The notes under the pieces: model-generated | Told to the model about the DNA's origin: nothing | Database searches by the model: none | What the model saw: only the letters and a program-made list of their open reading frames with translations | Origin: a virus | Lineage: Duplodnaviria; Caudoviricetes | Direction: 5' to 3' (one strand) | Length of the DNA stretch: 46,454 nt | Virus record (IMG/VR): IMGVR_UViG_3300049198_000022 | Location: 1 to 46,454 of that record | Shown here: positions 6,183 to 44,018 of the stretch, piece after piece | Layout: each line of letters opens with the position of its first letter | Numbering within the stretch: the stretch's first letter is position 1 | Program-made: the position numbers and the translations under genes

Positions 6183-7150
6183 CACATTTTCTCCCATTCA
6201 CGTTTCACAGGGGTAGTCAGCGGCTTCTTGGAAGCCTGCTCGTCCAAGAACTGCTTGCCCTTGGGGGTCGGCTTGGGCAGCTTCTCTCTGCCGAACTTGT
6301 CGGGCAGCAGACCCACGCGGTAGCTTGTGGCGTCGCAGCCTGCACACGGGCCGAAGTCACGCAGCCCTACGACAAGCCGACGACGCGCCTCGTCCATCAC
6401 CTTGCCGTGCCATATCTCCAGCAGGCCGACCTTGTTGATGTTGCCGGTGGCCAGCTCGCCACGCCAGTCGTTGCAGCAGATGGCGGTGGAGCCGTCCCAC
6501 CGGAAGCTCAGCTCTCGGAAGGGCTTGGCGCACGGCTTGCCTTGCCCCGCGCTGCTCTTGGGAGCGCCTGCGCCCGCATGGTTATTCAGCGAGGCGTGCG
6601 TTCCCTCCGTGTTGGCGTCAATGGGCCGGATATGGACCAGCCGCCGCGCCTTGGCCTTCTGGCGGGCGTGGGGATTGCCAAGCGGGTTATCGGGGTACAC
6701 GAAGAACTCGTAGTCCGCATTCGGCGCAGCGGCAAGGCGGGCCAGCACCTTCGGCACAAGGCTGACGTTCTGGTACTCGTCCAGCCCCAGTGTGTTCAGC
6801 CCCGCTTCGAACAGAGTGCGGATTGTGTTCGGCCCCTCCGGTCCTTGTAGCCCGCCGCCGTTGGAAAGCATCAACATGCTGACGCGCGGCAGATGCCTGC
6901 GGAATATGCCGACTATCTTGGCGGCGTCGGGGTGCATGGTCGGCTCCCCGTGCATCGCGAACTCAAGGCGGCAGTTCCACCTATGTTCGGCAAGCTGACT
7001 GGCAATGCGCTCCGCGGTCTTAGCGGTCATGAACTTGTAGGTCCGCTCTTTGCCACGGATGCCGTTGATGCCGCAGAACGAGCAGCGCAGATTACAACCT
7101 TCCGCGAGCTCGATCTGTACGGCAAACGGCGGCTCTTGTTTGTACGGCAT
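6182..7150 (-). CDS. Radical SAM enzyme with SPASM/twitch domain
   Basis: CNLRCSFC (CxxxCxxC), HGEPTMH, C-terminal CAKPF...DGSTAICCND...CAGC; AAGGAG SD. Confidence 0.9.
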   Translation of the reverse strand: MPYKQEPPFAVQIELAEGCNLRCSFCGINGIRGKERTYKFMTAKTAERIASQLAEHRWNCRLEFAMHGEPTMHPDAAKIVGIFRRHLPRVSMLMLSNGGGLQGPEGPNTIRTLFEAGLNTLGLDEYQNVSLVPKVLARLAAAPNADYEFFVYPDNPLGNPHARQKAKARRLVHIRPIDANTEGTHASLNNHAGAGAPKSSAGQGKPCAKPFRELSFRWDGSTAICCNDWRGELATGNINKVGLLEIWHGKVMDEARRRLVVGLRDFGPCAGCDATSYRVGLLPDKFGREKLPKPTPKGKQFLDEQASKKPLTTPVKREWEKM

Positions 7151-7174
7151 TTGATATCTCCTTGTTACCGGCGC

Positions 7175-7203
7175 AGCTTACAGCGGCAGCGCGTGAGGGG
7201 CAA
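7175..7203 (-). promoter_or_regulatory. Sigma70-like promoter upstream of rSAM-HMase-HD-kinase genes
   Basis: Minus strand TTGCCC-N17-TAAGCT in the intergenic gap. Confidence 0.55.
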
Positions 7204-7207
7204 CAGA

Positions 7208-7360
7208 TTATGTGCGTCCCACAACTATGTAGACACTGAGAACCGGCAGTATCACATGAAGCTGGATGCCGCGCTGCCCATTGGGGCCGCGCACGGCGCA
7301 GAACATGAACCCGAGACCGAACTGGGTCTTGTCTATAGTGTGGCTGAAGTCAAAGATCAT
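7208..7360 (-). CDS. Small 50-aa protein (MIFDFSHTIDKTQFGLGFMF...VVGRT), absent from ORF track
   Basis: Hand-translated; ATGA overlap with the upstream stop at 7357-7360. Confidence 0.55.
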   Translation of the reverse strand: MIFDFSHTIDKTQFGLGFMFCAVRGPNGQRGIQLHVILPVLSVYIVVGRT

Positions 7361-8211
7361 TGGCCGTTCTCCCACGGTAGGTCAAGCGGGGTGTACTTCT
7401 GCTTCGGCCGGCCCTCGCCCAGCCGCACGCGCTCGTACTTGTCGAATTCACACAGACAGTTCTGCATGTCGTGGGCGGTAAGCGGCTCCGCATTCCAGCG
7501 GGCGTTCACCGCATCGCGCAGCCGCAGCAGCGTTTCGCGGAACTCCATCTCCTTCCACGGCGCGTCGGTGGGGCGCAGCATAACGCGGTTCAGCCCGCGT
7601 CGGCTCCCAGGACCGCTGGCCGCAAAGGTGTGGAAGTCTTCCCACGTACGCCCGTCGTTGACGTACTTCCAGTCAGCGATCACCTGCGCGGCCATGAAGC
7701 TGCCCAGCCCTTGCTGCTCGAGCAGAACCATCTGGACGTTAGCGAGCTGGCCCACGTTCATGCGGGTGGTCAGCTTGTCGCGGTTCTTCCACATGGGCTT
7801 GAGTACCACGTCGACGACGTAGTCGACCTTATCCATCGCCCGCCCGTTAGTGCTGACGATGTAGGCGGCATTGAAGTTCTTCTTGCCCGCGCTGGCCCGC
7901 ATCTTCAGATTCTTGCGCATACGGGCGGGGTCGAACGGCAGGACGTTCTCACGAATGTAGTCCAGCGTCTCCTCGTTATTGAACAGCCGCGCCACCACGA
8001 GCGCGAACCACACGTACGGAGACGACGAGTAGTAGTCCCCGTAATTCTTGAGAATCCACTTGGTCACGCGGTCGTCATTGCGGCGGACGTTGCAGAAGCG
8101 GTACTCCGAGATAATCGGGTCGGGCTTGGCCCTGCTATGCCAGCCCTCTTCCTTGGCCACCCTATGACGCTCGCGCGCCTTGATGAAGTCGACTACAGCC
8201 TTCACTCGCAT
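7357..8211 (-). CDS. Helical 5-hmdU DNA kinase-like protein (aGPT-Pplase1 / HMUDK_hel family, HhH-glycosylase-like fold)
   Basis: ERHRV...DPIISEYRFCNVRRNDDRVT, ARLFN, AAYIV, GLGSFMAAQVIAD, GPGSRRGL, QNCLCEFDKY. Confidence 0.82.
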   Translation of the reverse strand: MRVKAVVDFIKARERHRVAKEEGWHSRAKPDPIISEYRFCNVRRNDDRVTKWILKNYGDYYSSSPYVWFALVVARLFNNEETLDYIRENVLPFDPARMRKNLKMRASAGKKNFNAAYIVSTNGRAMDKVDYVVDVVLKPMWKNRDKLTTRMNVGQLANVQMVLLEQQGLGSFMAAQVIADWKYVNDGRTWEDFHTFAASGPGSRRGLNRVMLRPTDAPWKEMEFRETLLRLRDAVNARWNAEPLTAHDMQNCLCEFDKYERVRLGEGRPKQKYTPLDLPWENGQ

Positions 8212-8233
8212 TACACCCTCCTAATGTTGGCGT

Positions 8234-8521
8234 TCACGTTACGTTGTTCTTCCACTCTTGCATAAACTTCTCGTCGCTGCGCAGCCGCTTGCGTATATGG
8301 TAGCCCTGTCGGCGGTCTACTTCAACGGCCCCTAGCCGCACGGCCTGCGCCCGCCTGCCCTTGGCGACGTCGTAGTGTGGGAAGCTGAACGGCTGGAACC
8401 ACTCACGCTTCATGCCTATGGCGTCGGCCATGACGTGCAGTTCGGCTATGGTGTCGGCGAACATGTGACACATGACCATACGTCCCAGCTTGTTCGCTGC
8501 CCCATCTACGTAGACCGCCAC
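8234..8521 (-). CDS. DUF4031-family protein
   Basis: MAVYVD...MCHMFADTIAELHVMADAIG...WFQ...PHYDV...AVRLGA. Confidence 0.8.
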   Translation of the reverse strand: MAVYVDGAANKLGRMVMCHMFADTIAELHVMADAIGMKREWFQPFSFPHYDVAKGRRAQAVRLGAVEVDRRQGYHIRKRLRSDEKFMQEWKNNVT

Positions 8522-9289
8522 CTACACCCTCCCAATTTCGTAGGCTTTCTTCCACTGGACACGCACGTCACGGCGTTCGGCCCACGCGTCCTTGCTCTTG
8601 GCATTCTTGGTGACCACGGTCACAACTCCAGGATGCAGCCGCGCCAGCCCCTCCGCGCCCTGCGCCTGCACTTCCAGCGAGCGATAGGTGGAGCAGCCTC
8701 CTGGAGCGTTGCTGCGACCCTGATCTTGACACCAGCGGTTCAGCGTGTGGCTCTCGTAGCCGCGCCGAAGAAGCTGAAGGGCTACGTCAAAGTCCTCCAT
8801 TACCGGCAGGCGGTCAAAGCGGATGCCCTCGCTCTTGAGTACGGAGGCGTCGTAGCCCAGCGCACGCAGACACCGAATGTTGTAGATGACCTCGTCGTCG
8901 GGGTTGCGGTTGGCACCTTCACGTACGGCGATGGAGGCGTGAACGCACTTCTTGAGCGTGGTCTCCATAGCCCGCAGCATCTGCGTGACGTCGGCCGGTG
9001 TGGCCTTGGCCAGCAGGCGCGGGTCGTCTGCCCGCCGTACGAAGAAGCTGAGGTCGTCGTCCAGCATAAGCACCGGCCCCTCGCTGATGTCTATGATATG
9101 TTGGCGCACCTTGCCGATGCCCTTGGCGCTAGTCACGTAGACCGCGTCAGCGCCGAAGCGCTCAGTGTATGCCTTGGCGTCGGCCTTTGCGACGACAAGC
9201 CTTGCCCGCTTGCGGGCGGCGGGAGGCAACTGATCGAAAGTGTGGTGGGCTTGGTCCGCCCTACCAAGGCTGGGGATGAATATCTGCAT
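8522..9289 (-). CDS. Glycosyltransferase, TET/JBP-associated (TAGT)/GREB1-like GT-A family
   Basis: IFIPSLGRA, GIGKVRQHI, MLDDDL (DxD), EDFDVALQLLRRGY, GGCSTYR. Confidence 0.8.
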   Translation of the reverse strand: MQIFIPSLGRADQAHHTFDQLPPAARKRARLVVAKADAKAYTERFGADAVYVTSAKGIGKVRQHIIDISEGPVLMLDDDLSFFVRRADDPRLLAKATPADVTQMLRAMETTLKKCVHASIAVREGANRNPDDEVIYNIRCLRALGYDASVLKSEGIRFDRLPVMEDFDVALQLLRRGYESHTLNRWCQDQGRSNAPGGCSTYRSLEVQAQGAEGLARLHPGVVTVVTKNAKSKDAWAERRDVRVQWKKAYEIGRV

Positions 9290-9370: not shown

Positions 9371-10042
9371 TTACGCGAACTCGATGTAACCCTTCTTGAC
9401 GCACCAGCCGAAGTCCAGCTTGCGATCGCCGTATTCCTTCGACGTGGCCAGCTCCGCGGAAGCGTCGTCGGTGGTCTTGTTGCCCATGACGACATCGACC
9501 ATGTGCGCGGTCCACGTGCCTTCGCGGGTCTTGATGTCGGCCCGCTTCACGAGATGCTTGTACTTGCGGTTCTCGGCCGGAGCCTTGGGCTCCTTGGGGG
9601 TCTTGGCCTTCGCAGCCGGTGCGGCCTTGGTCGCCTTCGCGGCGGGTGCGGCCTTGGCAGTGGTCTTCTTGGTCAACTTGGTCGCCATTTCTTGTAACTC
9701 CTCGTCTGTGAGTGGGACTACCCCACGAAAAAGCTGAACCGCTTCGGGAGTAGCCCCTTGGTTCAACATGTCAAGCTTTAGCTCTAATAGAGCAGACTGT
9801 AAAGCACTTTCTTCAAGGTTTAATCTCGGATAGTTTTTCAGCTCGTGGTCCATAATAATGCGGTCGCGTACGCCGAGCTGAGCGTCAACATTGGCCCAGC
9901 GGTACACCACCCGCACCCCGCAAAAGGTTTGCGCGGCGACGAGCATCCTACCCAGCTTGCCGCCCATAAGGCTGGCGGGGTTGCCTATCCAGTAGGGCTC
10001 AAAGGCGGGTGCCGGTGCCGGTACGGGTTTACGCTTGGCCAC
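9371..10042 (-). CDS. Protein with K/A/P-rich linker and C-terminal REGTWT..DxxW domain; likely internal start at 9688
   Basis: GTG start overlapping the helicase end; GAGGAG-N9-ATG at 9688 in frame; C-terminal domain paralogous to 26286 and 27676 ORFs. Confidence 0.75.
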   Translation of the reverse strand: MAKRKPVPAPAPAFEPYWIGNPASLMGGKLGRMLVAAQTFCGVRVVYRWANVDAQLGVRDRIIMDHELKNYPRLNLEESALQSALLELKLDMLNQGATPEAVQLFRGVVPLTDEELQEMATKLTKKTTAKAAPAAKATKAAPAAKAKTPKEPKAPAENRKYKHLVKRADIKTREGTWTAHMVDVVMGNKTTDDASAELATSKEYGDRKLDFGWCVKKGYIEFA

Positions 10043-18721: not shown

Positions 18722-19071
18722 CTTCCGTCTCCTAGATCGTGTTCGTAATCTTGTTCACCAGTTCCTCGGCACGCCGCACACTGCATCCGCAAGGCGCGGA
18801 AGCCTTTCTGCGACGAGATATACCCGCGCCCGCTGCACTTGGGGCAGGCGTTGTCTGTGACCGCGCGGGTAGATTTGGTTTGCAGCCACTCGGCCACGGT
18901 ACGCTCTGCGCGCTTGATGGCGTGGAACTCCTCCACGTCACCGCCCTTGTCGGGGTGCGCCTGCATCGCCTTGGCCCTGAACGCTTGGCTCAGGGTGGCG
19001 GCTGTCACCTGCTCGCGCTCCAACCCCAGCAGAAGCAGCGCGTCGGCGAGCGCGTCGTCCTTGCGGCTCAT
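18718..19071 (-). CDS. J-domain protein with DnaJ-type zinc finger
   Basis: HPDKGG; CPKCSGRG and CAACRGTG repeats. Confidence 0.88.
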   Translation of the reverse strand: MSRKDDALADALLLLGLEREQVTAATLSQAFRAKAMQAHPDKGGDVEEFHAIKRAERTVAEWLQTKSTRAVTDNACPKCSGRGYISSQKGFRALRMQCAACRGTGEQDYEHDLGDGR

Positions 19072-21113
19072 CAGCGTTTCTCCCTAACGGGCTGCATTTT
19101 GAGATTGTCCTCCAACTTCTTCTTGTTGGTACACTTACGCCACTGCTCCACGTTTCGCACGGCGAAGAACCGTTCCATGCGCCCCGTCGGCCCCTGCAAG
19201 GGCTGGCCCTTATATACCTGAACGAACCCAGCGGCTGACAGCTGTCGGCCAAGGCCCACGGCGGTCACGCGGCTGTTGGGGTGGTCACGCTCGTACATGT
19301 TGAGCAGCTCACGGCTGGAGAACAGGTCGCGGGTGTGGCGCATTTCACCCATTGACAGGATTTGGTCGGGGTAGGTTTTCAGCTCGTGCACCCAGCTTCC
19401 TGCGTCACCCTTAGTGGCGGCGATCATGCGCTCCTTGGCGTACGTCTTGGGCGCATGTGCGGCGGGGTTGAAGGCGGGGCTGATCTTGCGGTCTTTGAGC
19501 CACTGCATCAGGTGGCCCGCCCCGTCGCCCTTGTACCACTTGTCGTACTCTTGGTAGAACTTGTCCGGCAGTGGGTCGCCGGTAACTTCCACGATCAGGA
19601 AGCGGCGGTCTTTGTCTTCGAGGAAGAAGCTGTCGCCGTGCTGGGACGTGAAGCAGAAGTTCATGCAGTTGGGCAGACTGTACTGCGGCACGAACTTGAT
19701 GTTGATATCAATCTCGGCCTTGGTGATCAGCCGCTTCAGGACGTTCATGTAAGCACGGTTGTCTTTACCCGTAATTTCGTCGCCTAGGATGAACTGTTTG
19801 TTCTCGGCCCAGTAGGACTCCTCAAGGTCAGCGTCGGCGATTTCCTTGAAGTTGTCGCCGTATATGCGGCCCAGCGTGTAGCCGATCAGCGTCTTACCCG
19901 TGCCTTGCGCGAGGCCGTGGATGACCACGGCCACGAACATCTTGGCTCCGGGATTCTGGATGGGGTAGGCGCACCAATCGTAGAAGTACTCAAGCACGCC
20001 TTCCTCGGCGTCGTCAAAGATGAACTCGCATAGCTTGAGCCAAGGCTTGACGTCACCCTTGGTGGGCTCCACTCCCCAGCCGCGCCATTGGTTGAACTCG
20101 TTCTTGTTCGTGATCATCGGCTGTCCTGGAGCGTAGGTCAGGCGCTTCACGCTCCGGCGCAGCGGCCAGCGCAGCCACACCGGCGCGGCAGGCACCTTTT
20201 CACGCAAGAGGTCGCCCTTGGCACTGATCTTGGTTTCAGTGGTGCTGGCGGTGGCCCAGCGGCTATGACCGCGAAACTGCTCGGCGTTCATCTTCTGGCC
20301 GGTCTCGGACACGACCAACAGGCCAGGATCCTCTACGTAGACCACGTCCTCGTTGATACGCCATAGCGCGCGGCTCAGGCCCAGCGGTTCGGCGGCTTCC
20401 AGCAAGTCCTTCAGGTCTTCGTCAGTGTTGGCCAGCAGGTAGTCGTCCAGCCCGACCTTGGTCTCGTTCTCACCGTCGGGCAGAGCCAGCATCTTGAGCT
20501 GCGCGCCGTGTTCCTCCAGCTCACTGGTCAGGGCGTTGATGGCAAGGCACACGTTGGGCTTGGTCAGGTAGTCGCTGTCAAAGCAGATGAACACCGTGCG
20601 CTTGGCCCAGTTGAACGCCTTGAGCTCGGGCAGAAGCCAGACCCCCTCCTTGCTGGAGCGGAAGTTCCAGACGCCGCCGAGGCCAATGGTGGGGAACCCC
20701 GCCGCGCAGGCGGCGGCGGCTTTGAGCTCGCCTTCGGTGATGATAATGTCGTAGTCAGCGTCTTTGGATATGGTGGCCCAGTCGCTGCTCGTGGGCATAT
20801 AGGCGCACACTCCGCTGTTTGGCGGCTGCGCGTAGCGTTGCTCTTTGGCACCTGCGGCGTCTTTGAAGCCGAACGCCTGTTTGTCTAGATACCGCACCCG
20901 AAAGAAGTTCGGCCACTTGGGATGGCTGGACATCGGCTTCTTGTCAATACCCATGTATGGGATGACTAGGGCGGGGCGGGCTTCCAGCGACTTGTCAAGC
21001 GTCATGGCGCTGGCCACTTCGTACATACCTAGGGCCGACCCTTGGGCGCTGGTGAGGCCGCTGCTCAGCAGCTTCTCCTTGCCTAGTTTCGTCCACTCGC
21101 CCTTGCGTGCCAT
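19071..21113 (-). CDS. Primase-helicase (TOPRIM/DUF3854-like plus SF3/DUF5906-like P-loop)
   Basis: IITEGELKA, IGLGGVW, ICFDSD, KVGLDDYL; GTGKT, ILGDE, DRRF. Confidence 0.88.
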   Translation of the reverse strand: MARKGEWTKLGKEKLLSSGLTSAQGSALGMYEVASAMTLDKSLEARPALVIPYMGIDKKPMSSHPKWPNFFRVRYLDKQAFGFKDAAGAKEQRYAQPPNSGVCAYMPTSSDWATISKDADYDIIITEGELKAAAACAAGFPTIGLGGVWNFRSSKEGVWLLPELKAFNWAKRTVFICFDSDYLTKPNVCLAINALTSELEEHGAQLKMLALPDGENETKVGLDDYLLANTDEDLKDLLEAAEPLGLSRALWRINEDVVYVEDPGLLVVSETGQKMNAEQFRGHSRWATASTTETKISAKGDLLREKVPAAPVWLRWPLRRSVKRLTYAPGQPMITNKNEFNQWRGWGVEPTKGDVKPWLKLCEFIFDDAEEGVLEYFYDWCAYPIQNPGAKMFVAVVIHGLAQGTGKTLIGYTLGRIYGDNFKEIADADLEESYWAENKQFILGDEITGKDNRAYMNVLKRLITKAEIDINIKFVPQYSLPNCMNFCFTSQHGDSFFLEDKDRRFLIVEVTGDPLPDKFYQEYDKWYKGDGAGHLMQWLKDRKISPAFNPAAHAPKTYAKERMIAATKGDAGSWVHELKTYPDQILSMGEMRHTRDLFSSRELLNMYERDHPNSRVTAVGLGRQLSAAGFVQVYKGQPLQGPTGRMERFFAVRNVEQWRKCTNKKKLEDNLKMQPVREKR

Positions 21114-21137
21114 AAAGCCCCTCTAAATTGTGTCCAG

Positions 21138-21170
21138 AAAAATCGCCCGCACCGTGTTAGGGCGCGGGCG
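21138..21170 (-). terminator. Rho-independent terminator at the end of the early gene block
   Basis: CGCCCGC...GCGGGCG stem followed by AUUUUU on the minus strand. Confidence 0.65.
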
Positions 21171-21191
21171 TCGTGCTGGGGTGGCAGTCTG

Positions 21192-21205
21192 CTAACCTAG
21201 GTTAG
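21192..21205. promoter_or_regulatory. Perfect 14-bp palindrome CTAACCTAGGTTAG
   Basis: Directly visible in the intergenic gap upstream of the primase; function inferred. Confidence 0.45.
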
Positions 21206-21227
21206 TATCGCGGGTTGCCAGCGGGTG

Positions 21228-24219: not shown

Positions 24220-24405
24220 TTACATAGGTCCAGCGGACCGCAGTTGACTTGCCTTCTTGCGAGCAGCTATGCGCGCATCGTGCTTCGTGGCGGTGAGGGC
24301 CAGCGCAATAGGCTCCTCTCCGATATAGACAACCGGAAGCCATCCGCCTGCCACCCGACGCGCCGCCCACGAGACGCGCCGGAACTTCTTTGCCGCATTT
24401 GTCAC
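24220..24405 (-). CDS. Small basic hypothetical protein
   Basis: GTGA-coupled ORF. Confidence 0.55.
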   Translation of the reverse strand: MTNAAKKFRRVSWAARRVAGGWLPVVYIGEEPIALALTATKHDARIAARKKASQLRSAGPM

Positions 24406-25259
24406 AGCGCCTCCAACTCTGCGATAGGCTCGCCGGTTGCGCGGATAGCCGCAGCATTGATCTGCTGCTCCGCCTGACGCACCGCATCTTGGAGCGTGCC
24501 TGCGCCCGTGCCGGTGGAGCCCGTTTGCAGACCGTCAATGCAGAGCGCATCGGGGTTGAGGTTGAGGACGTCGTCCGGAACCATAGGTACGACATTTCCG
24601 TACCCATAGTCTTCCATCGCCGCTGGCATTCGCTCCCACACGCCGAACGCAAGGCGGCGGAAAGCCGCAGGGTGGCCAAGGCCGAACGCGACAGCGCTCA
24701 GGTCCAGTGGGTCGCCAGCCTGCTTGATGGTCCACACTACGCATCCGCGCTTGCCCCTGAGCCTGCTGACAGCGCAGCCGATCAGCTCAATGCGGACGCC
24801 TCGGTTCTCAAGGCGGTCAATGATGCTGACCATTGCGGCGGCGAAGTTTGCCATGCGCCGCGCCGACGTGCCTGCCGAGCAGCACACGTTGACGCAGATG
24901 GTCATGGTCTGGCGCGGCTTGTGCGCATTGCCACGGCGGACCATGTTGAACGGGTCGCCGCTGATCGCACGGGCGACGTCAGCGTAGTCACCGCCGACGC
25001 TATAGGTGCGCTCAGCCCGCTGGCCGGTCGGGATGGAGTTGATCAGCGCAGACACCTTGCCGACGCCATCCTCCCATCCCTCGCTGGCCAGCCGCACCGC
25101 GCCTTCGTAACCGGCGCTGAGGTCCCAGTCGTGGTCGCGCCCCGTGGCACGGCTGGCGGCCTGCTTCCACGTCCTCGGCGTTTCGGCCGACCAAGTGGCC
25201 ATCTGGAGGGCACTGTCAAACTGATAGATGACCCGCTGCTCGTCAGTGAACTTAAGCAT
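24402..25259 (-). CDS. VWA-like (CobT-like) partner of the AAA+ ATPase
   Basis: Start MLKFTD at 25259; alternating beta/alpha core (TICVNVCCSAG, IIDRLENRGVRIEL, HPAAFRR); directly downstream of the MoxR-type ATPase. Confidence 0.6.
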   Translation of the reverse strand: MLKFTDEQRVIYQFDSALQMATWSAETPRTWKQAASRATGRDHDWDLSAGYEGAVRLASEGWEDGVGKVSALINSIPTGQRAERTYSVGGDYADVARAISGDPFNMVRRGNAHKPRQTMTICVNVCCSAGTSARRMANFAAAMVSIIDRLENRGVRIELIGCAVSRLRGKRGCVVWTIKQAGDPLDLSAVAFGLGHPAAFRRLAFGVWERMPAAMEDYGYGNVVPMVPDDVLNLNPDALCIDGLQTGSTGTGAGTLQDAVRQAEQQINAAAIRATGEPIAELEAL

Positions 25260-26283
25260 GATAGCTCTCCCCGAGGCGTGCTGCGACGCGCGCACGATTG
25301 GTCGCATCCAGACCCTTCCAGATGCAGGCTTCTTCAACCTTGGCCTTGTCCATGCCAGCGGCGAGCAGCTTGGCGCCGGTGATGCTGGCACGGGGCGACA
25401 CGATGTGGCGCACCTTTTCAACGGTGATCGCACGACGCACCGCTTGCACCCGCTTGACCCAGTCGGCGTCAACCGCCAGCTTGAGCTCCAGCGCCTCGTC
25501 GTAGTCCACCTCAAACACGGTGAACCGGTCCAGCGTGGCTGCGTCCAGCTGATTGCGACCGACGTACTGGCGGTCAGCGCCGCGACCGAAGGTGTTCCCC
25601 GCAGCAATGGCGAAGAAGTCCTTGTGCCGCTTGACGAGTCCGTCAGGGAAGGGGCAAGTGTCGTTGGCAAGTGCCGCATTGAAGGCGGTCATTGCGTCGG
25701 CGTCGCTCGCGTCCACCTCGTCAAACAGGAAGCCGCCGCCGTGCTCATAGGCCTCGCGGAATTGTGTGCGCACGACCTTGCCGTGTGCGTCGATAAAGCC
25801 GAGCAGCTTGAACTCGCTCGTGACGCGCGCCTCCATGTAGAAGGGGCGCTGCAAGATCGTGCAGATTTGTTCGGCCAGCGTGGTCTTGCCCGAGCCAGCC
25901 GGACCCACGATCATGGGCGATGCGCCTGCCACTACGGCGAGCAGCACGTCCTCCAGCATGTTATGGGCCAAGTCCACCTTGACCGCAGGCAACTTGCCAA
26001 CCTTGATCTCGGTCACACGGCTGAGCAAGTTCAGGTTGTCCTTGACGAGCTCGGGCACAAGTGCCGCCATGCGCTGCGCCATAAGGTCCACGACCTTGGT
26101 CACCGCCTCGTCCTTGGGGTCAACCGCTTCGGTCTTGGTCACCGCAGGAACAGCGCCCGCGATGCAGTTGCCCAGCGTGTGACGGACGGTCCAGCGACCG
26201 TCTACTTGCTCGGCGACGCCGAGGCCTGCGGGAACCTTGTGGCCGCACTTGTGGCAGACGCCTTCGTACTGATTGGTCTTCAT
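25252..26283 (-). CDS. MoxR/CobS-like AAA+ ATPase with N-terminal zinc ribbon
   Basis: GPAGSGKT, FLFDEVD, AGNTFGRG...YVGRNQLDAATLDRF, SPR; N-terminal CHKCG. Confidence 0.9.
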   Translation of the reverse strand: MKTNQYEGVCHKCGHKVPAGLGVAEQVDGRWTVRHTLGNCIAGAVPAVTKTEAVDPKDEAVTKVVDLMAQRMAALVPELVKDNLNLLSRVTEIKVGKLPAVKVDLAHNMLEDVLLAVVAGASPMIVGPAGSGKTTLAEQICTILQRPFYMEARVTSEFKLLGFIDAHGKVVRTQFREAYEHGGGFLFDEVDASDADAMTAFNAALANDTCPFPDGLVKRHKDFFAIAAGNTFGRGADRQYVGRNQLDAATLDRFTVFEVDYDEALELKLAVDADWVKRVQAVRRAITVEKVRHIVSPRASITGAKLLAAGMDKAKVEEACIWKGLDATNRARVAARLGESYHA

Positions 26284-26285
26284 GA

Positions 26286-26723
26286 TTAATCCTCCATTTT
26301 GAATGTGATGTATTGCTTTTCTTCGACGAGCCAGTTCCAGTCAATGCCTTTGCTGGCGAACTCGGGGTATTGCGTGGCCAGCGCCAGCTCCGCATCCTTG
26401 ACGCGCATATTGGCGACCACGACGCTGACCATCGCATGGGTGTAAGTGCCGCGCCGGTGCCGGTTAGGGGCGAACTCGCGCAGGACACGATAGGGCCGGT
26501 CGGTCGCTTTAGGGCGACGGGTGCGGCGGGTGCGGGTGCGCATCGCTTGGCCAGTAAAGGCGTCGCGGATCGGCGGTGGCGGCAATAGGTCACCGCTGCT
26601 AGGTGGCCTAGACGTGACAGGCTTGCGGGGCATAAGGCGCTCCAGCAAGTTGGCGATCACCTCGCGGGGTATTCCTTCGGCTTGCGCCTGCATCCGTTTG
26701 GCAAAGTCTTTCGCGACTTCCAT
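26286..26723 (-). CDS. Basic protein with REGTWT-like domain (paralogue 2)
   Basis: DRPYRVL...RRGTYTHAMV...IDWNWLVEEKQYITF; GGAGG SD. Confidence 0.75.
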   Translation of the reverse strand: MEVAKDFAKRMQAQAEGIPREVIANLLERLMPRKPVTSRPPSSGDLLPPPPIRDAFTGQAMRTRTRRTRRPKATDRPYRVLREFAPNRHRRGTYTHAMVSVVVANMRVKDAELALATQYPEFASKGIDWNWLVEEKQYITFKMED

Positions 26724-26779
26724 ATTTTCCTCCAGTGGTTAAGGCCAGCCGCCTTTATAGCGGCAAAGCGGTTGAAAAC

Positions 26780-26953
26780 CTAGCGGTCGCTGCGGGCTGC
26801 GTCATAGCGGCGCTGCCATGCCCCTAGGGCAAGGCTCACGCTGACCCGTCGCTGCGCAGCACGGCGGTCGCACAAGGCGTAGTGCCGCGCAATAGCGGCG
26901 CTAGTGGCCTTGCGGCGCTCGTCAGCCTGACGCTGATCTACAGGGGCGCTCAC
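26780..26953 (-). CDS. Small Arg/Ala-rich early protein
   Basis: Hand-translated 57 aa; GTGA overlap. Confidence 0.45.
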   Translation of the reverse strand: MSAPVDQRQADERRKATSAAIARHYALCDRRAAQRRVSVSLALGAWQRRYDAARSDR

Positions 26954-27054
26954 CGGCTTGCCCCGCAGTGGATGCAGACGTCCATGGCTGGCTCAATCAG
27001 CTGGCCATTGTCGTCCACCGCCTCGGTCCATTCGTGCTGGCATGTGCTGCTCAT
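26950..27054 (-). CDS. 34-aa zinc-finger microprotein (MSSTCQHEW...CIHCGASR)
   Basis: AAGGAG SD, ATGA overlap, CxH...CxxC. Confidence 0.65.
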   Translation of the reverse strand: MSSTCQHEWTEAVDDNGQLIEPAMDVCIHCGASR

Positions 27055-27212
27055 GCTACTGCTCCTTGCTTGCGTGCTGTATCCCTGCGCCACTGCGCTT
27101 CGCTGCGAGACATCCCCGTATATCGGGGCCGCCCATATTCAAACAGCGCCCAGCTATAGGCGTCGTCGCCCTCATATTTGGCGATCGTGAATCGTTGCGG
27201 CTTGGCCATCAT
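27051..27212 (-). CDS. Small early protein (MMAKPQRFTIAKYEGDDAYSWALF...)
   Basis: ATGA-coupled ORF. Confidence 0.65.
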   Translation of the reverse strand: MMAKPQRFTIAKYEGDDAYSWALFEYGRPRYTGMSRSEAQWRRDTARKQGAVA

Positions 27213-27382
27213 GCCATCCCCATGTCTTGCAAGGCGTGGCCGACACGCATGTCCACCGCGCCCTTGGTCAGCTTGGCCAGTTCGGCCTCGGTGAAGCAGC
27301 ACGCCTCAAAGGCGTATGCGCCTTCCGGCCCATAGGCTGCTTCGGCCTCGGCCATGCGTGTTTCGTAAAGCGATTTGGACAT
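27209..27382 (-). CDS. Small early protein (MSKSLYETRM...)
   Basis: Hand-translated 57 aa; GGGGAGGG SD. Confidence 0.6.
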   Translation of the reverse strand: MSKSLYETRMAEAEAAYGPEGAYAFEACCFTEAELAKLTKGAVDMRVGHALQDMGMA

Positions 27383-27385
27383 GTG

Positions 27386-27583
27386 TCAGCCCTCCCCGTT
27401 AAGCTTGGCAATGGCCGCATCAATGCTGGCCTGCGAGTCACCCGTCCGCGCGATGCGGGTGCGGCTGCGGGGCAAGCCGCAATCGGCCTGCTCCTGCTCC
27501 ACCACGGCGCGGTCGTAGTCGCCAAAATGGACGCCCCATGCGCCATCCTCGCGGGTGGCCAGTACGTAGTAAGACTTTTCCAT
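27386..27583 (-). CDS. Small early protein (MEKSYYVLATREDGAWGVHFGDYDR...)
   Basis: AAAGG SD before ATG 27583. Confidence 0.7.
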   Translation of the reverse strand: MEKSYYVLATREDGAWGVHFGDYDRAVVEQEQADCGLPRSRTRIARTGDSQASIDAAIAKLNGEG

Positions 27584-27675
27584 TTGTTTACCTTTCGTTA
27601 AGGACTGCCAGTGTGGCCAGTCATCGCAACACTGGACGCGCCGGTTAAAGGGTGCGCCCAGTGCTGCGGGACGGG

Positions 27676-28338
27676 TCATGCGAACGCGATGAACTTCTTG
27701 GCGGCCATCCACGTCCAGTCCAGCTTGCGCGCCTTCGCGTCGAACGGCTTCTTAGCGAGCTCAGCGTCGGCCTTGGCGGTGGACGTGTGCTTCAGGGCCA
27801 GTCCGACCATATAGATCGTCCACGTCCCCTCGCGCAGCCCGAGGTCGGCCAAGTTGGCCAGCGCCTTGTAAGTGCGGTCCGCGCCCTTGGCGGGTGCCGG
27901 TGCCTTGGCAGCGGGTGCCGCCTTGGACGCCGGTGCGGTTGCCTTGGCAGCGGGTGCCGCCTTGGCCTTGCTATCGGCAATGGCCTTGCTGGCATGGGGC
28001 GCGTCGCGGCCGGAAATGCCGGTGGCCAGCTTGGCAGCGGGTGCCGCCTTGGCCAGCTTGGCCCAGAGCGCTTCAGCCGCCTTGAACGACTGGCCCACTG
28101 CGCAAGCCGCGCGCAGTTCGCCACTCCAGCGGTCGCTGGGGAACGACAGGGTGTCGCCGCCTGCCGAGTGGACGTGGTGCGACGTGCTGTTAGCGCCCCC
28201 CTTGCTGGACACGATCAGGTCGGCCTGCGCGGCGGTCAGCTTGGCGGGTGCCTTGGCCTTGGCGGGTGCGGTTGCCTTGGCGGGTGCCTTGGCCTTGGCG
28301 GTTGCGGTCTTGACGGACTTATTTACGGACTTGGTCAT
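27676..28338 (-). CDS. Histone-H1-like K/A/P-rich protein with REGTWT domain (paralogue 3)
   Basis: KAAPAAKA repeats; C-terminal DRTYK...REGTWTIYMV...LDWTWMAAKKFIAFA; TGGAG SD. Confidence 0.8.
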   Translation of the reverse strand: MTKSVNKSVKTATAKAKAPAKATAPAKAKAPAKLTAAQADLIVSSKGGANSTSHHVHSAGGDTLSFPSDRWSGELRAACAVGQSFKAAEALWAKLAKAAPAAKLATGISGRDAPHASKAIADSKAKAAPAAKATAPASKAAPAAKAPAPAKGADRTYKALANLADLGLREGTWTIYMVGLALKHTSTAKADAELAKKPFDAKARKLDWTWMAAKKFIAFA

Positions 28339-28342
28339 TGTA

Positions 28343-28407
28343 TCTACTCCATTTTCCGCAGCAAATGCGCTGCCAGTTGCGCCCTAGGTGCAAGGCGCAA
28401 GTGGCAA
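28343..28407 (-). repeat. Early leader element copy 1 (hairpin plus GAAAATGGAGT RBS)
   Basis: TGCCACTTGCGCC...GGCGCAACTGGCA, nearly identical to the copy at 28739-28798. Confidence 0.85.
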
Positions 28408-28442
28408 CGGCGCGCCGTGCTAGGGCGCGCCAGTTGGTTAGA

Positions 28443-28730
28443 TCATTCGGCCAGCAAGGCGCAAGCCGTTTCAAAGGCGAATTCGTAGTCGGCAGCAATG
28501 GCGCGCGGCACGGGGCAACGCTCCTTGCGTGGCAGCGGTTCGCTGATTCCCAAATAGCTGGCCAGCGCATCGCGCAGCTTGTCGTCGGCCTTGGCCCAGT
28601 GCGCGGCGGCACGGCTTGCGGCGGCATACTGCGGATCGCCGTTTAGCGTGGCGGTCAGCCATGCCAGTGCAGCGGGGCAGTCCATGCCAGTGGCGGCGAC
28701 GGTGAGCTCAAAGTAAAATTCGTTTTCCAT
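28443..28730 (-). CDS. Hypothetical early protein
   Basis: TGGAG SD and conserved leader. Confidence 0.65.
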   Translation of the reverse strand: MENEFYFELTVAATGMDCPAALAWLTATLNGDPQYAAASRAAAHWAKADDKLRDALASYLGISEPLPRKERCPVPRAIAADYEFAFETACALLAE

Positions 28731-28738
28731 TTGTTAAC

Positions 28739-28798
28739 ACTCCATTTTCTGCAAAATTGCCAGTTGCGCCCCGCTAGGTGGCAAGGCGCAAGTGGCAA
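28739..28798 (-). repeat. Early leader element copy 2
   Basis: TTGCCACTTGCGCC...GGCGCAACTGGCAA then GCAGAAAATGGAGT. Confidence 0.85.
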
Positions 28799-28833
28799 TG
28801 GCGGCGCTAGGTTGCCCCGCGCCGCCGCTGCTT

Positions 28834-28849
28834 TGTGTGTGTGTGTGTG
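28834..28849. repeat. (TG)8 microsatellite
   Basis: Directly visible. Confidence 0.95.
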
Positions 28850-29520
28850 GTGGCACCCTGCCCCCTGCATTTCAGCCCTAGCGGGCAGTTGCAAAGCTGG
28901 CCTGCATTGCAGGGGTATATGCCCCCACGCCGCCGCTGCCTTGCCGCCGTTATCCGCTGGACCACTACATAAGGGGCGCTTGCGCCTGCCCCTTACGTGG
29001 TGCCACCCGCCTGCAATTATTGCCGCACGGCTGCTAACCCGTGGCGCGGCTTTAGGTGCCGCGTACCTTTGCAAACTTGCCACCGCACCCCGCAGGGTCT
29101 TGCCGTGATGGCCTTGTGTGTGCCTAGCCGCGCATTGCAGGGGTCGGTCGCCCTAGCCGCTAGGTGTGGCTGGAACCCGCCACCGGCTGCGGCACCATGC
29201 CGCAACACGTGAATTGCAAGCGTCGTGCCAAACACGAAAAACGGCGGAAATCAGCCATTTTTCCAGCCGCGCCCAGCGCCGCCGCGCCCAAAGTGTAAAG
29301 AAACTTTACAGCCGAAAAAACTTTTCGGGCGCAAGTGCCTCAAATCACACGCTTTTCCCACTGTAAAAAATTCCGTCACCCATTATGGAAAACCTTACAC
29401 GTCCTAGGGCTCGTTTTAAGCGAATCTGACGCGAGAAATCCGCCAGCCATACTAGCATGACCGGACGACCCGTTTTCGCATTTTCCTACTTTTGGCACGG
29501 GACTTGCTGGGGTGCAAAGA

Positions 29521-29952
29521 TCATGCCAACTTCGCCGCCTCGGCCGCAGTGGCGCGCCGCACGGTAACGGCCACGGTTCCATCCGCGGTGTGGACTAGCC
29601 GCTGCCATGCCCCGTCGCGACTAAGCATAACTGCAAGGCTCTGCGCGGTGGGCGGTGCGGCGCTGCCCAGTTTGGCCAGTGTGTCCACTAGCAGCCGGTG
29701 CGCGGCCTTGCTGCCCATAGCGTACGCAATGGGTCCCGGCTGGCAGTCCACCACATGGACGATGCTTGGGGTGCGTCCCGCGCGCTGGCCGGTGCGCTTG
29801 GCCTGCCCCGCCGCAACACTTGCGCGGTGGGCTGCATCGGCCTGCAAGGCGTCGTCCAGCTGGCCAGCTAGGGCAGTGTGGGCTGGATCGCCCGTGGTGC
29901 GTAACGCAGCCGCTGCGCGCATGATCGTAAGCGTTAGCGAACTCTTAAGCAT
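29521..29952 (-). CDS. First early gene, Ala-rich hypothetical protein (MLKSSLTL...)
   Basis: AGAAGGA SD before ATG 29952. Confidence 0.6.
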   Translation of the reverse strand: MLKSSLTLTIMRAAAALRTTGDPAHTALAGQLDDALQADAAHRASVAAGQAKRTGQRAGRTPSIVHVVDCQPGPIAYAMGSKAAHRLLVDTLAKLGSAAPPTAQSLAVMLSRDGAWQRLVHTADGTVAVTVRRATAAEAAKLA

Positions 29953-30019
29953 AGCTGTTATCCTTCTAAGTGTTTGAAACTGCTCGCATAACAGATAAAC
30001 AGTTACCGCGCAGCCCATA

Positions 30020-30140
30020 CCCTATAAACCTAGTTACTAATTATGACCAATATACGTTAACCAACTCCCTTAGTTATTATTTAGTAACTACTTTTACCCC
30101 CTTAAGGTAGGTTAATCATGTGTTATGTGTTATTCTTTGC
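30020..30140. other. AT-rich tract with inverted repeat (origin/terminus/promoter candidate)
   Basis: TAGTTACTAA (30031-30040) and TTAGTAACTA (30081-30090); conspicuously AT-rich in a GC-rich genome. Confidence 0.5.
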
Positions 30141-30490
30141 CAAGTTTTGCTCGGCTTTACAGTGGCTTAGGCGCTGCGAGCGCCGCACACATGGCTGCTC
30201 CGCCACCACACATGGCCAGAATTGGTCGCCATAACAGTCACTTACAAGGTTAATTCCGTGCGTCGCCACGTGGCGCTGGTCAAACGGTTTGCAAACAGGG
30301 TAAACGTGGCCGGTCCTTATTGGAACGGAGCCGCCGAGCCAAAGAGTGGATCAGTCTGTCGTCCCCGAGACACGACGTGACCGAGACACGGAGCAGCGAA
30401 GTCACCAAGGGACATGGACGTTGGTTAATCGTAGCGACTGCGAGACTCAGGTCGCCGACAGACAGACTTAGGTGCGTCGTCTCTCGGGAC

Positions 30491-30542
30491 GATATGGTTA
30501 ACGAATATGGTAAACAGAAATGGTTAACAGATATCGTTAACG
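30491..30542 (+). repeat. Four tandem imperfect 13-bp repeats (consensus GATATGGTTAACR)
   Basis: GATATGGTTAACG / AATATGGTAAACA / GAAATGGTTAACA / GATATCGTTAACG. Confidence 0.9.
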
Positions 30543-30691
30543 AGGCGACGTCGCGACTTCGGGCGTCGTTAACCACGATGCGGGGTGCGCGGGGGTAGGT
30601 TGGGCGCGGCGGCGGTGTCGCCTTGGTAATACCCGAGACCAGAGCCGCAGAGTAGTTTCGTCATTGAAGAGTATCAGCAAGGAGTACCGGA

Positions 30692-30802
30692 ATGACACCG
30701 TGGACATGGACAGATCGTATCCGCAGCCTCTTTGAGGCCCACAAGACCGAGATGCTTATCGTCTCAGTCAGCAGCTTCCTTGCGGGCGCGGTATTCTTCT
30801 AA
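30692..30802 (+). CDS. 36-aa membrane-anchored microprotein
   Basis: AAGGAG SD; TAATG coupling to TerS; hydrophobic C-terminus. Confidence 0.6.
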   Translation: MTPWTWTDRIRSLFEAHKTEMLIVSVSSFLAGAVFF

Positions 30803-31332
30803 TGCCTCGCCCAGTCAAGAAGCACAAAGACCCCAAGAAGCAGAAGCTTCACGAAGCAGCGTTGGCGCGCAGACGCGCAGCGCACGCAGAAAAGCGCACC
30901 CTTGAAATGGCGGCGCAAGCAGCCGAAGGTCAGGCAGACTTTCAGAAGCTTGTGGAAGCCGAAAAGGAGCGCATAGAGTCTCAGGCTACAACGTTCGCCC
31001 GCAAGGGTGGCTCCACTCCGCCCAAGGTGACGACGCAGGCGCGAGACAATCTCGCCAAGGCGTTTGACCTTATGGGCGGCGTGCCTGCGCTCGTAGTGTG
31101 GGGACGCAGCAACCCGACAGACTTCTACCGTCTCTGGTCGCGGCTTATCCCCCGAGAGGCCGCGGAGACCAGCACGGCCCTCCCACTGGAGGACTTGCTG
31201 GCAAAGCTGGCCAGCCGCGAAGAACAATCAGTGGGCCAAGCCGCCTACGAGATTGGACAAGAACTTCTCGACAAGGGCAAGGCGGCTGCGGAAGCAGAGG
31301 ACGCCGAGCTAGCGAAAAGGATTTTGAACTGA
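30802..31332 (+). CDS. terS: Putative terminase small subunit
   Basis: RKGGSTPPKVT...AFDLMGGVPALVVWGRSNPTDFYRLWSRLIP pattern; first large gene of the late operon. Confidence 0.65.
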   Translation: MPRPVKKHKDPKKQKLHEAALARRRAAHAEKRTLEMAAQAAEGQADFQKLVEAEKERIESQATTFARKGGSTPPKVTTQARDNLAKAFDLMGGVPALVVWGRSNPTDFYRLWSRLIPREAAETSTALPLEDLLAKLASREEQSVGQAAYEIGQELLDKGKAAAEAEDAELAKRILN

Positions 31333-31616: not shown

Positions 31617-31957
31617 ACTTCATGAACGCACCCACGCCAGTCATGACCGACGGTGTGCAGCGCATGGGGCGCAAAGTGGCGGAGCCTGCCCCGCCTGCGG
31701 GCATGAGTTCGGAAGAACAGCTCCGCGCCGCCCAGCTGGAGCAGGCGCAGGGCGGCACGCCTGAGCAGGAAGCCGCAGCGCGGCGGGCGGGCTTCAAGAA
31801 CTACAACGAAATGGTCGTGTACGAGCGCAACAAGCAGAACAAGACCGGCGGCACCACGGGCAAGGGGCTGATGGATCAGCTGCTTGAGCATCCGATGCAC
31901 CCGCGCAACATGTTCAACTACATCAACGACGCACTGAAGAAGGCAACCGGTCAGTGA
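31613..31957 (+). CDS. Hypothetical protein
   Basis: GGAGG SD; ATGA and GTGA coupling. Confidence 0.65.
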   Translation: MNFMNAPTPVMTDGVQRMGRKVAEPAPPAGMSSEEQLRAAQLEQAQGGTPEQEAAARRAGFKNYNEMVVYERNKQNKTGGTTGKGLMDQLLEHPMHPRNMFNYINDALKKATGQ

Positions 31958-33534
31958 CTGAGGCAGAGCAGCTTGCACTCTTGGCGGACTTGCGCGCAGA
32001 CTTGATGCGCTATGCGCCCGCGTGTCTGAAGATCAAGACCAAAAGCGGTCAGCTGCTCCCCCTCAAGCTGAACAAGGCCCAGCGGTACGTCCATGAAAAG
32101 CTGGAAGAGCAGCTGAGGGAGACGGGCAAGGTCCGCGCTCTGATCCTTAAGGCACGTCAGCAGGGCTTCAGCACCTACGTCGGCGCGCGGTTTTATCACA
32201 AGGCCAGCCTGAACCACGGCGTCGGGGTCTTTATCCTCACCCACGAGCAGGCGGCGACGGATAACCTGTTCAACATGGTGGCCCGCTACCACGAACACAA
32301 CTTCCTCAAGCCGCACACGGGCGCGGCCAACGCCAAGGAGCTCTTGTTCGACAGGCTGGACAGCGGCTATGGCGTGGCAACCGCAGGGCAGAAGGCAGTT
32401 GGACGCTCGAAGACGATCCAACTCTTCCACGGATCGGAAGTCGCCTTCTGGCCCAACGCCGGTGACCACTTCGCGGGCGTCGGGCAGGCCATTCCGGAGC
32501 TTCCGGGAACCGAAATCATCCTTGAAAGCACGGCCAACGGCATCACCGGCGAGTTCTATGAGCGCTGGCAGCAGGCTGAGGCGGGCATCGGCGACTATAT
32601 TCCGATCTTCTCGCCGTGGTTCTGGGAATCGGGCTACGCGCGCAAGGTTCCTGAGGGCTTCCGCATCAAAACTGAGAAGGAAGCTGGCGAGGACATCAGC
32701 GAAGCCGACTATATGGAGCTCCACGACCTGTCGCTGGAGCAAATGGTGTGGCGGCGCGCGAAGATTGCGGAGCTCAAGGACCCGATGCTCTTCATGCAGG
32801 AGTATCCGGCCACCCCTGACGAGGCGTTCCAGTCCACCGGCCACGACAGCTTCATCAAGAGCGGCCTCGTTCTCAAGGCGCGGAAGTTCACAATTGAGGA
32901 CCCAGTCGGCCCGTTGGTCATTGGCGTTGACCCCAGCCGCTTCGGCGACGATCTTTTCGCTATTGTGTGGCGCAAGGGACGTAAAATTCTCAAGAAGGAG
33001 ACCATCGAGAAGATCGATGTCGTTTCCGGAGCCAACCGCATCAAGCAAATCATCGACAAAGACAACCCAGCGCGGGTTTTCATCGATGCTGGCGGTGTCG
33101 GCGGTGGCGTGTACGACTTGGTCAAGTCCTACGGCGAGAAATACGACCGTGTGACGCGCGCCGTGAACTTTGGCGGCGAGCCGCAGGAGCCGGTGATCAT
33201 TTTGGACGACGGTTCGCGCTCTCCGGGACCGAAGAACCGCCGTGCCGAAATGTGGATGCGGTCGAAGGAGTGGCTTGAGGACTCCATTGGGGTGGATATT
33301 CCCGACGAGAGCATCTTCCAGAGCGACGCGGTCGGCCCGAGCTACAAGTATGACTCCAACCAGCGCCTTCAGCTGGAAAGCAAGGAGCAGATGCGCAAGC
33401 GCGGCGTCCGCAGTCCCGACATCTGGGATGCAGTGGCCCTCACGTTCGCAGAACCTGTCTACGAGAAGAAATCAGAGTTCGCAACGACCAAGCCTCTTAC
33501 CGTCAACACGCCAACAGGATGGATGGGACTATGA
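31954..33534 (+). CDS. terL: Terminase large subunit
   Basis: ILKARQQGFST (Walker A), HGSEVAFW, LESTANG, QEYP, IGVDPSRFGDD, FIDAGGVG, SPDIWDAVALTFA. Confidence 0.95.
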   Translation: MTEAEQLALLADLRADLMRYAPACLKIKTKSGQLLPLKLNKAQRYVHEKLEEQLRETGKVRALILKARQQGFSTYVGARFYHKASLNHGVGVFILTHEQAATDNLFNMVARYHEHNFLKPHTGAANAKELLFDRLDSGYGVATAGQKAVGRSKTIQLFHGSEVAFWPNAGDHFAGVGQAIPELPGTEIILESTANGITGEFYERWQQAEAGIGDYIPIFSPWFWESGYARKVPEGFRIKTEKEAGEDISEADYMELHDLSLEQMVWRRAKIAELKDPMLFMQEYPATPDEAFQSTGHDSFIKSGLVLKARKFTIEDPVGPLVIGVDPSRFGDDLFAIVWRKGRKILKKETIEKIDVVSGANRIKQIIDKDNPARVFIDAGGVGGGVYDLVKSYGEKYDRVTRAVNFGGEPQEPVIILDDGSRSPGPKNRRAEMWMRSKEWLEDSIGVDIPDESIFQSDAVGPSYKYDSNQRLQLESKEQMRKRGVRSPDIWDAVALTFAEPVYEKKSEFATTKPLTVNTPTGWMGL

Positions 33535-43915: not shown

Positions 43916-43967
43916 GCGTTGGGCACGCAACATTATTAGTGAGGCCCGCAGGCGGCTTAATAACAGC

Positions 43968-43996
43968 TTGCCGAGTAAATAACTTTAGCCTATAGG
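43968..43996 (+). promoter_or_regulatory. Sigma70-like promoter upstream of the ejection genes
   Basis: TTGCCG-N17-TATAGG in an AT-rich intergenic gap. Confidence 0.55.
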
Positions 43997-44018
43997 GCAA
44001 ATATCTTGGAGATTCGTT

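Follow-up and report, generated by a model that had tools for sequence, protein, structure and literature searches.

The DNA analysed here, called the window, is the whole of IMG/VR record IMGVR_UViG_3300049198_000022 (46,454 nt), a complete 46.5-kb virus record from soil; trough coordinates are positions in the window. In a stretch of about 2 kb the dinucleotides TC and GA are strongly depleted, and this trough is the head of a leftward early gene block. The feature is real, conserved and selected, and it is graded and not absolute in the window genome. As judged from the genes encoded, a link between the trough and the phage's own DNA modification is plausible. The parts of the trough are as follows, with the ratio of observed to expected dinucleotides given as O/E.

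28340-30313, no strand: trough core, O/E 0.45-0.46, z -10.7
26500-28339, no strand: trough shoulder, O/E 0.74, fading leftwards
28731-29200, minus strand: deepest part, a non-coding leader, O/E 0.19, directly downstream of a leftward sigma-54-type site

Observed GA plus TC was compared with the expectation from base composition, and z values were taken from 2000 base shuffles. O/E was 0.46 in 28,340-30,320 against 1.01-1.13 across the three remaining large blocks, and 108 TC and GA were counted in 28340-30313 against 238 +/- 12 after shuffling (2000 shuffles; minimum 194). Windows of the same size beyond 26.5-30.3 kb always had an O/E of at least 0.91. Both strands were hit, with plus-strand GA at 0.36 and TC at 0.49 in the trough against 0.93 and 1.13 in leftward genes. 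Within 28731-29200 two runs free of both dinucleotides were found, of 138 nt from 28961 (E=1e-4) and of 124 nt from approximately 28749. Non-coding DNA that is always poor in TC was rejected as an explanation, since the remaining non-coding gaps of the window mostly lay at 0.82-1.30, with two short exceptions at 21114-21227 (0.51) and 43916-44018 (0.47).

A preliminary description made from the letters alone had reported GA/TC depletion in 28340-30320, and this withstood composition correction (z -10.7), with sliding O/E in agreement. Its hand counts were exact on recount: 4 GA and 7 TC in 28741-29220 (20.8 and 34.8 expected), 3 GA in 30001-30320 (16.1 expected; TC there was 11 against 24.1) and 29 GA in 30321-30560 (20.4 expected). 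The left limit of 28340 held for the core, but the shoulder to 26500, which fades leftwards in 300-nt bins, had been missed. The right edge was sharp (change point 30,314; twice the log likelihood ratio, 49), as the abrupt switch described near 30,320 had implied; the GA richness reported beyond it was not anomalous, O/E in 30314-30801 being 1.28-1.29 and within the genome's usual range (1-kb maximum 1.32). The rise right of 30,314 is a return to normal plus the strand bias of rightward genes.

The eight trinucleotide classes containing TC or GA were the eight most depleted of the 32, and all 16 NTCN contexts lay at 0.30-0.77 when eight genomes were pooled. Five GATC, two GANTC and one GAATTC, the EcoRI site, are retained in the trough, where the 4-6 nt sites occur at densities of 2.5 (GATC) and 1.0 (GANTC) per kb against 3.7 and 1.2 elsewhere; TC outside GATC, GANTC and TCT fell from 94 to 42 per kb. 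Avoidance of restriction (GATC, GANTC, GAATTC) was rejected because the sites persist and the residual TC is still more than halved. The targets of DarT are motifs of the TCT/TNTC type, and their avoidance was rejected because all 16 NTCN contexts are depleted and TC outside TCT falls too. The avoided unit is the dinucleotide itself, and thus GANTC/GATC restriction and TCT-type DarT targets, which the preliminary description had put forward as alternatives, are ruled out as stated.

Three leftward genes are concerned in the codon-level tests.

29521-29952, minus strand: first leftward gene, 143 aa, clade-restricted family, 1 Glu and 8 Asp
28443-28730, minus strand: second early gene, 95 aa, function unassigned, TC+GA z -3.9
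27676-28338, minus strand: Ala/Lys-rich protein, winged-helix-like by predicted structure (template modelling score 0.5-0.6; a lead only), codon z -2.2

Given the protein and genome codon use, TC plus GA numbered 23 against 37.1 expected in the first gene (z -3.5) and 21 against 31.7 in the second (z -3.9). Among 27 other genes tested, z fell below -2 in two, 27676-28338 (-2.2) and the primase gene (-3.3). Amino-acid composition alone was rejected on these two early-gene values and because non-coding DNA is the deepest part. In the pooled orthologue codons of the first two genes, with no weight given to the L005 row for the first gene (6 codons; G and L numbers are our handles for genomes and loci), CTC was used 5 times against 36.6 expected and GTC 12 against 32.2; gains were seen in CTA (28 against 11.9), GTG (38 against 30.9) and AGC (51 against 36.7), and TTA, CTT and GTT also serve as replacements. 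As a separate observation, the primase gene (19071-21227 region) is mildly poor in TC/GA at synonymous sites and has the gap of 0.51 upstream of it.

Loss of TC by mutation was weighed as a rival, through ultraviolet damage at TC or through a TC-specific cytosine deaminase, of which APOBEC and DddA-like enzymes are examples. It would be favoured by the rise of TT/AA to 1.44 in the trough and by a pyrimidine-dimer glycosylase gene carried by the phage. Pairwise alignments gave no excess of TC>TT, however (0.20 of 491 differences in early genes against 0.22 of 2852 in controls), the replacement codons include CTA, GTG and AGC, and G+C is not reduced in the deepest part. Deamination is contradicted by the TC>TT shares and the replacement codons, and mutational loss as a whole is extremely unlikely. 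Synonymous TC avoidance without a C-to-T excess indicates selection.

The window genome is that of a P22-like podovirus, with P22-like portal and coat genes and genes for polymerase A, primase and ligase. No close cultured phage was found, the best terL (large terminase gene) identity being 45.5%. Family matches delimit a modification cluster.

4570-9289, minus strand: modification cluster
4570-5103, minus strand: HD nucleotidase
5100-6197, minus strand: thymidylate-synthase homologue, predicted 5-hydroxymethyluracil (hmU) synthase, PF00303 E 6e-20
6182-7150, minus strand: radical SAM/SPASM protein
7357-8211, minus strand: aGPT-Pplase1 (HMUDK_hel), clade-1 model PF18723
8234-8521, minus strand: DUF4031 protein
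8522-9289, minus strand: TAGT glycosyltransferase, PF20691 E 1e-23

The synthase homologue is 40% identical to M6 gp58 and has in common with it the active-site motif RSND...GANAVHFS, the Asn of which presumably marks specificity for deoxyuridine monophosphate (dUMP). Among the 57 open reading frames (ORFs) scanned, no match was obtained to the 5-hydroxymethyldeoxyuridine (5-hmdU) kinase (HMUDK_HMUD1) or to aGPT-Pplase2, just the clade-1 model PF18723 matching; this places the window outside the M6/ViI pathway as the available text of PMC8989533 defines it. No relative in PDB was found by sequence for TAGT or aGPT-Pplase1. The enzymes predicted for the cluster would make hmU DNA and glycosylate it. 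The motif of CAjan-type 7-deazaguanine modification is GA, and this modification was rejected because neither dpdA nor preQ0 synthesis genes were found among the 57 ORFs (PHROGs, Pfam). The radical SAM/SPASM protein had no match in the cultured-phage collection and was found in G009 (84%) and G020 (42%); the deepest troughs are those of G009, G020 and the window, all with this protein, which may alter the sugar.

Upstream of terL 51 loci were compared, loci with less than about 3 kb upstream and near-duplicates being excluded. The minimum 1-kb O/E was 0.26-0.82 in all 12 loci at 67% identity or more and 0.84-1.13 in all 39 loci at 58-65% identity. The position of the trough is conserved in relatives, the synthase is absent from all four outgroup records tested, and troughs were confined to cluster-bearing genomes wherever the cluster could be checked. 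The slot before aGPT-Pplase1 is occupied by a GT-A glycosyltransferase in G000, G005, G006, G009 and G028, by a P-loop kinase of the 5-hmdU type in G007, G008, G016 and G029, and by a GT-B-like protein (weak Pfam match) in G025. Fixed-window TC ratios were 0.43, 0.71, 0.49 and 0.34 in GT-A genomes and 0.81, 0.84 and 0.67 in kinase genomes; the trough is usually deeper with a glycosyltransferase than with a kinase, a direction that fits, in few genomes and with overlapping groups. TG ratios were 0.98-1.13 and 0.85-0.95, respectively, and the slight TG dip of the kinase genomes is in keeping with the preference for TG/TC that kinase phages are reported to have. On inspection, no aGPT-Pplase2 was seen in three kinase clusters, those of G007 and G016 as full ORF lists. 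Two further sequences were recorded in relatives: a contig related to G009 (L015:1-470) begins with tandem repeats that form a 340-nt TC/GA-free run, and a low-complexity stretch in G006 (L040:3057-3500) lacks TT over 225 nt and TA over 456 nt.

An independent case was found in G020 (68 kb), which has no match to the terL, portal or capsid of the window and carries TAGT (53% over the matched part), the radical SAM protein (42%), aGPT-Pplase1, synthase and HD genes. At 62,237-62,899 (L207:2237-2899) a run of 663 nt contains neither TC nor GA (E 5e-31). This island starts within a sigma-70-like promoter, which was read by eye and was not called by the promoter scan, spans a gene for a 158-aa protein lacking both Asp and Glu, and stops beyond a 15-pair hairpin. 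There are terminase-like genes, named by inspection, on either side of it, and the island's product had no homology to the early proteins of the window (hhalign probability 0.1). Such bounds associate the purge more with a transcription unit than with a genome end. A second TC/GA-free run of 148 nt was noted in G020 at 16,257, directly upstream of the polymerase gene.

The control region of the window and its right flank contain the following elements.

29215-29230, minus strand: predicted sigma-54-type (-24/-12) consensus, into the early genes, aligned in L001, L002 and L003
29493-29508, plus strand: predicted sigma-54-type consensus, towards the switch and the terminase operon, inverted pair I15
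29513-29528, minus strand: third predicted sigma-54-type match, which overlaps the first gene's stop codon
30115-30143, minus strand: weak sigma-70-like match (9 of 12) preceding the first gene; 4.7 kb gave 2 such matches, with 1.0 expected
28339-28435, minus strand: double hairpin that precedes a ribosome-binding site; fold z -5.2 and -4.5, the second copy (repeat D14) lying at 28731-28830
30314-30801, plus strand: flank beyond the switch on the right, GA/TC at its normal level, with 13-nt GTTAAC-type repeats (D2) at 30491-30541
30802-31332, plus strand: putative small terminase, by position alone, no family match
31954-33534, plus strand: large terminase, family match

All three sigma-54-type matches of the genome, scored with a pattern that we take to be the consensus, fall within 29,215-29,528, against 0.07 expected by shuffling. 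A match occurs at the same place in 10 of 13 relatives, those without being G006, G029 and G028, the contig of which stops before the region. Since the sites are present in deep- and shallow-trough relatives alike, they are not the cause of the trough. The window genome encodes no classical enhancer-binding protein that could be recognised. The single Glu that had been described for the first early protein was borne out on translation. Its sequence gave 20 matches including itself, none with Pfam; the predicted model has a mean confidence (pLDDT) of 89.7, and searches for its fold or family returned nothing in Pfam or Atlas and nothing in PDB at E<=0.001.

The twin double-hairpin leaders, which precede two early genes, are possible processing or stabilising elements; an Rfam scan of 26500-31000 gave no match. 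The 30314-30801 region, with GTTAAC-type repeats that have similar counterparts in relatives, is a candidate packaging or late-control region, and the repeats are candidate terminase binding sites. An AT-rich core at 29990-30160 with conserved ACA(C/G)ATAACA and CTACCTTAAGGGG boxes was noted as a candidate origin or operator. The genes at 9371-10042, 26286-26723 and 27676-28338 are paralogues with a common 70-aa C-terminal domain, winged-helix-like by prediction, and the copy directly before the modification cluster could, on that structural prediction, recognise the modified base. The early block has at its inner end (24402-26283) a CobS/MoxR-like AAA+ gene with a DUF7192 partner.

TC is probably the phage's own mark, a premise common to three of the explanations weighed here. 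The favoured one, to which we assign slightly less than an even chance, is that TC is the modified context and would have been purged where host polymerase must start. In this mechanism hmU would replace T in the phage DNA, and the TAGT enzyme would glycosylate hmU in TC. The sugar would hinder initiation or early elongation by unaided host RNA polymerase, which would transcribe the trough first from the coated incoming DNA. An early protein (29521-29952 or the winged-helix-like 27676-28338) would then relieve the block, so that selection against TC weakens over about 4 kb and TC is at its usual level in the later genes. The core of this, a modified TC removed from DNA that the host enzyme must read, had been proposed in the preliminary description, and that proposal fits all of the tests run, which are tests on genome sequence. 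The trough minimum (0.19) begins directly downstream of a sigma-54-type site, which was counted in its favour. Specificity for TG/TC contexts in M6, ViI and phiW-14 is reported in the available text of PMC6449724, and an NTC preference of a phage T-dioxygenase in that of PMC13229309.

Several results weigh against the favoured explanation. The purge is partial, with 108 sites left in 2 kb, and the replication genes, which are also read from parental DNA, have normal TC, so that a relief step is required. In the 320 nt around the sigma-54-type sites O/E is 0.75, and the trough continues approximately 170 nt upstream of the sole sigma-70-like match there. Comparison of relatives with and without the modification cluster, as proposed earlier, found troughs in cluster-bearing genomes alone, where the cluster could be checked, but gave no clean control: three outgroup loci reach 0.70-0.73, like kinase genomes, and outgroup gene order differs, so these are not matched controls. 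The glycosyltransferase and kinase ratios overlap (0.71 in G005, 0.67 in G029; n=4 and 3), and all the kinase genomes may belong to a single clade of common origin. Outside the clade an island was found in one (G020) of seven phages with glycosyltransferase plus synthase; none was found in the fragments G030, G021 and G023, in the Manatee Spring phage, in LuckyBarnes (first 50,000 of 50,774 nt) or in phiJL001. M6, YuA and CAjan, the modifications of which are known, have no significant run free of the modified step; CAjan has GA-poor 400-nt windows (0.34-0.46) and no significant GA-free run. In favour of the explanation, as a weak positive control, both annotated -35/-10 promoters of YuA coincide with its lowest TG windows (0.59-0.66).

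In lambda and T7 geometry the last-packaged DNA is the first ejected. A rival that also takes TC as the modified context makes a host modification-dependent nuclease (END/GmrSD type) the selective agent, with 30,314 as the first-entering end, kept unmodified until an inhibitor is made. In the eight oriented genomes with a clear change point a single sharp edge lies 316-687 nt upstream of the putative small terminase gene (terS) and decays inward, as would be expected of last-packaged, first-ejected DNA, and the trough reaches upstream of the predicted promoter. As described in the available text of the sources, END nucleases target hypermodified phages and phages encode inhibitors (PMC12191111), and T5-like phages are more sensitive when sites lie close to the end that is injected first (PMC10644984). 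This rival is nevertheless unlikely: the 108 remaining sites would suffice for a nuclease needing few, the bounds of the G020 island are a promoter and a hairpin, and a terminus at 30.3 kb has no support in the assembled contigs, one of which bridges the switch at flat depth (contigs only, two runs, one of which may have supplied the window). Among 17 shorter contigs, three (L008, L056 and L006) have their start no more than a few hundred nt from the equivalent of the switch, and L012 and L013 start in unrelated sequence. Among the literature entries listed for genome ends of terminase relatives, nothing of use was found. A packaging start would be compatible with the edge that precedes the putative terS and with the repeats to the right of that edge, and would hypothetically be crossed by a rightward sigma-54 transcript. 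The suggestion that the switch marks a physical genome end is unneeded because the G020 island follows a transcription unit between terminase-like genes.

The two remaining rivals were judged less likely still. It is improbable that a host factor reading unmodified TC/GA, either a short-motif defence enzyme or a GA/UC effect on RNA, acts independently of the cluster. The imperfect link to the glycosyltransferase and the hairpin-rich leaders within the trough would suit it, but the longer motifs GATC, GANTC and TCT fail to explain the depletion, both strands and non-coding DNA are affected, and checked troughs are confined to cluster-bearing genomes. Sigma-54 promoters need upstream activator sites, and this requirement, with the boxes of the AT-rich core at about 29,990-30,160, would agree with a trough that keeps binding sites for replication, packaging or regulatory proteins unmodified, as in an origin or enhancer. 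This is highly improbable, for synonymous sites in coding sequence are depleted as well, and O/E comes closest to normal between the sigma-54-type sites (0.75).

Context-specific hypermodification of thymidine from 5-hmdU is described for M6, YuA, ViI, phiW-14 and SH-Ab 15599 in the available portions of PMC6449724, PMC8989533 and PMC13458397. Like the M6/ViI type, the window cluster joins a dUMP-hydroxymethylase-type synthase, an HD protein and aGPT-Pplase1, and TC is among the contexts reported for those phages. Unlike them, its TAGT glycosyltransferase occupies the kinase slot, no kinase or aGPT-Pplase2 having been matched in the 57 ORFs, and depletion is of TC alone and not of TG, where M6 and YuA have only mild TG dips. 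YuA (NC_010116.1) is likewise an hmU-type phage with annotated -24/-12 promoters; those of YuA stand among late genes, whereas the three matches of the window cluster in the control region and face both directions. Restriction-site avoidance in first-injected DNA, as given for the first-step-transfer region of T5/BF23 in the available text of PMC10644984, is likewise a local shortage of a motif where the earliest genes begin. In the window, known from contigs alone, the motif is a dinucleotide, probably the phage's own mark, and GATC, GANTC and GAATTC persist. A predicted hmU acceptor together with a GT-A-type enzyme resembles base J of trypanosomatids and the phage GT-A/TAGT enzymes, as set out in the accessible part of 10.1101/2023.12.21.572611, and an hmU source does lie next to a GT-A/TAGT glycosyltransferase in the window cluster (PF20691, PF00303). 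Base J is a glycosylated T linked to transcription stop, and the window is likened to it as predicted from genes alone; hmU in the window would be made before replication by the synthase, and the pattern is an unmarked stretch, not a marked terminator. No published modification-free early window was found in literature searches, most subscription papers lying outside their scope.

A wider proposal is made tentatively, with appreciably less than even confidence. Phages that glycosylate hmU at TC would be unreadable until a pioneer protein is made, and a self-exempt window would head the early operon. The first gene or the winged-helix-like protein would unlock transcription, possibly via sigma-54, a kinase swap would relax the window, and the missing dinucleotide would read out the specificity of the enzyme. 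The clade offers a natural comparison, with the same slot held by GT-A, GT-B or kinase. The wider interest lies in how host RNA polymerase begins work on heavily modified phage DNA. If the proposal is true, a modification-free start window would be a testable answer and would indicate which proteins open up the remainder of the genome, and the sequence context of uncharacterised DNA-modifying enzymes would be predictable from genome sequence.

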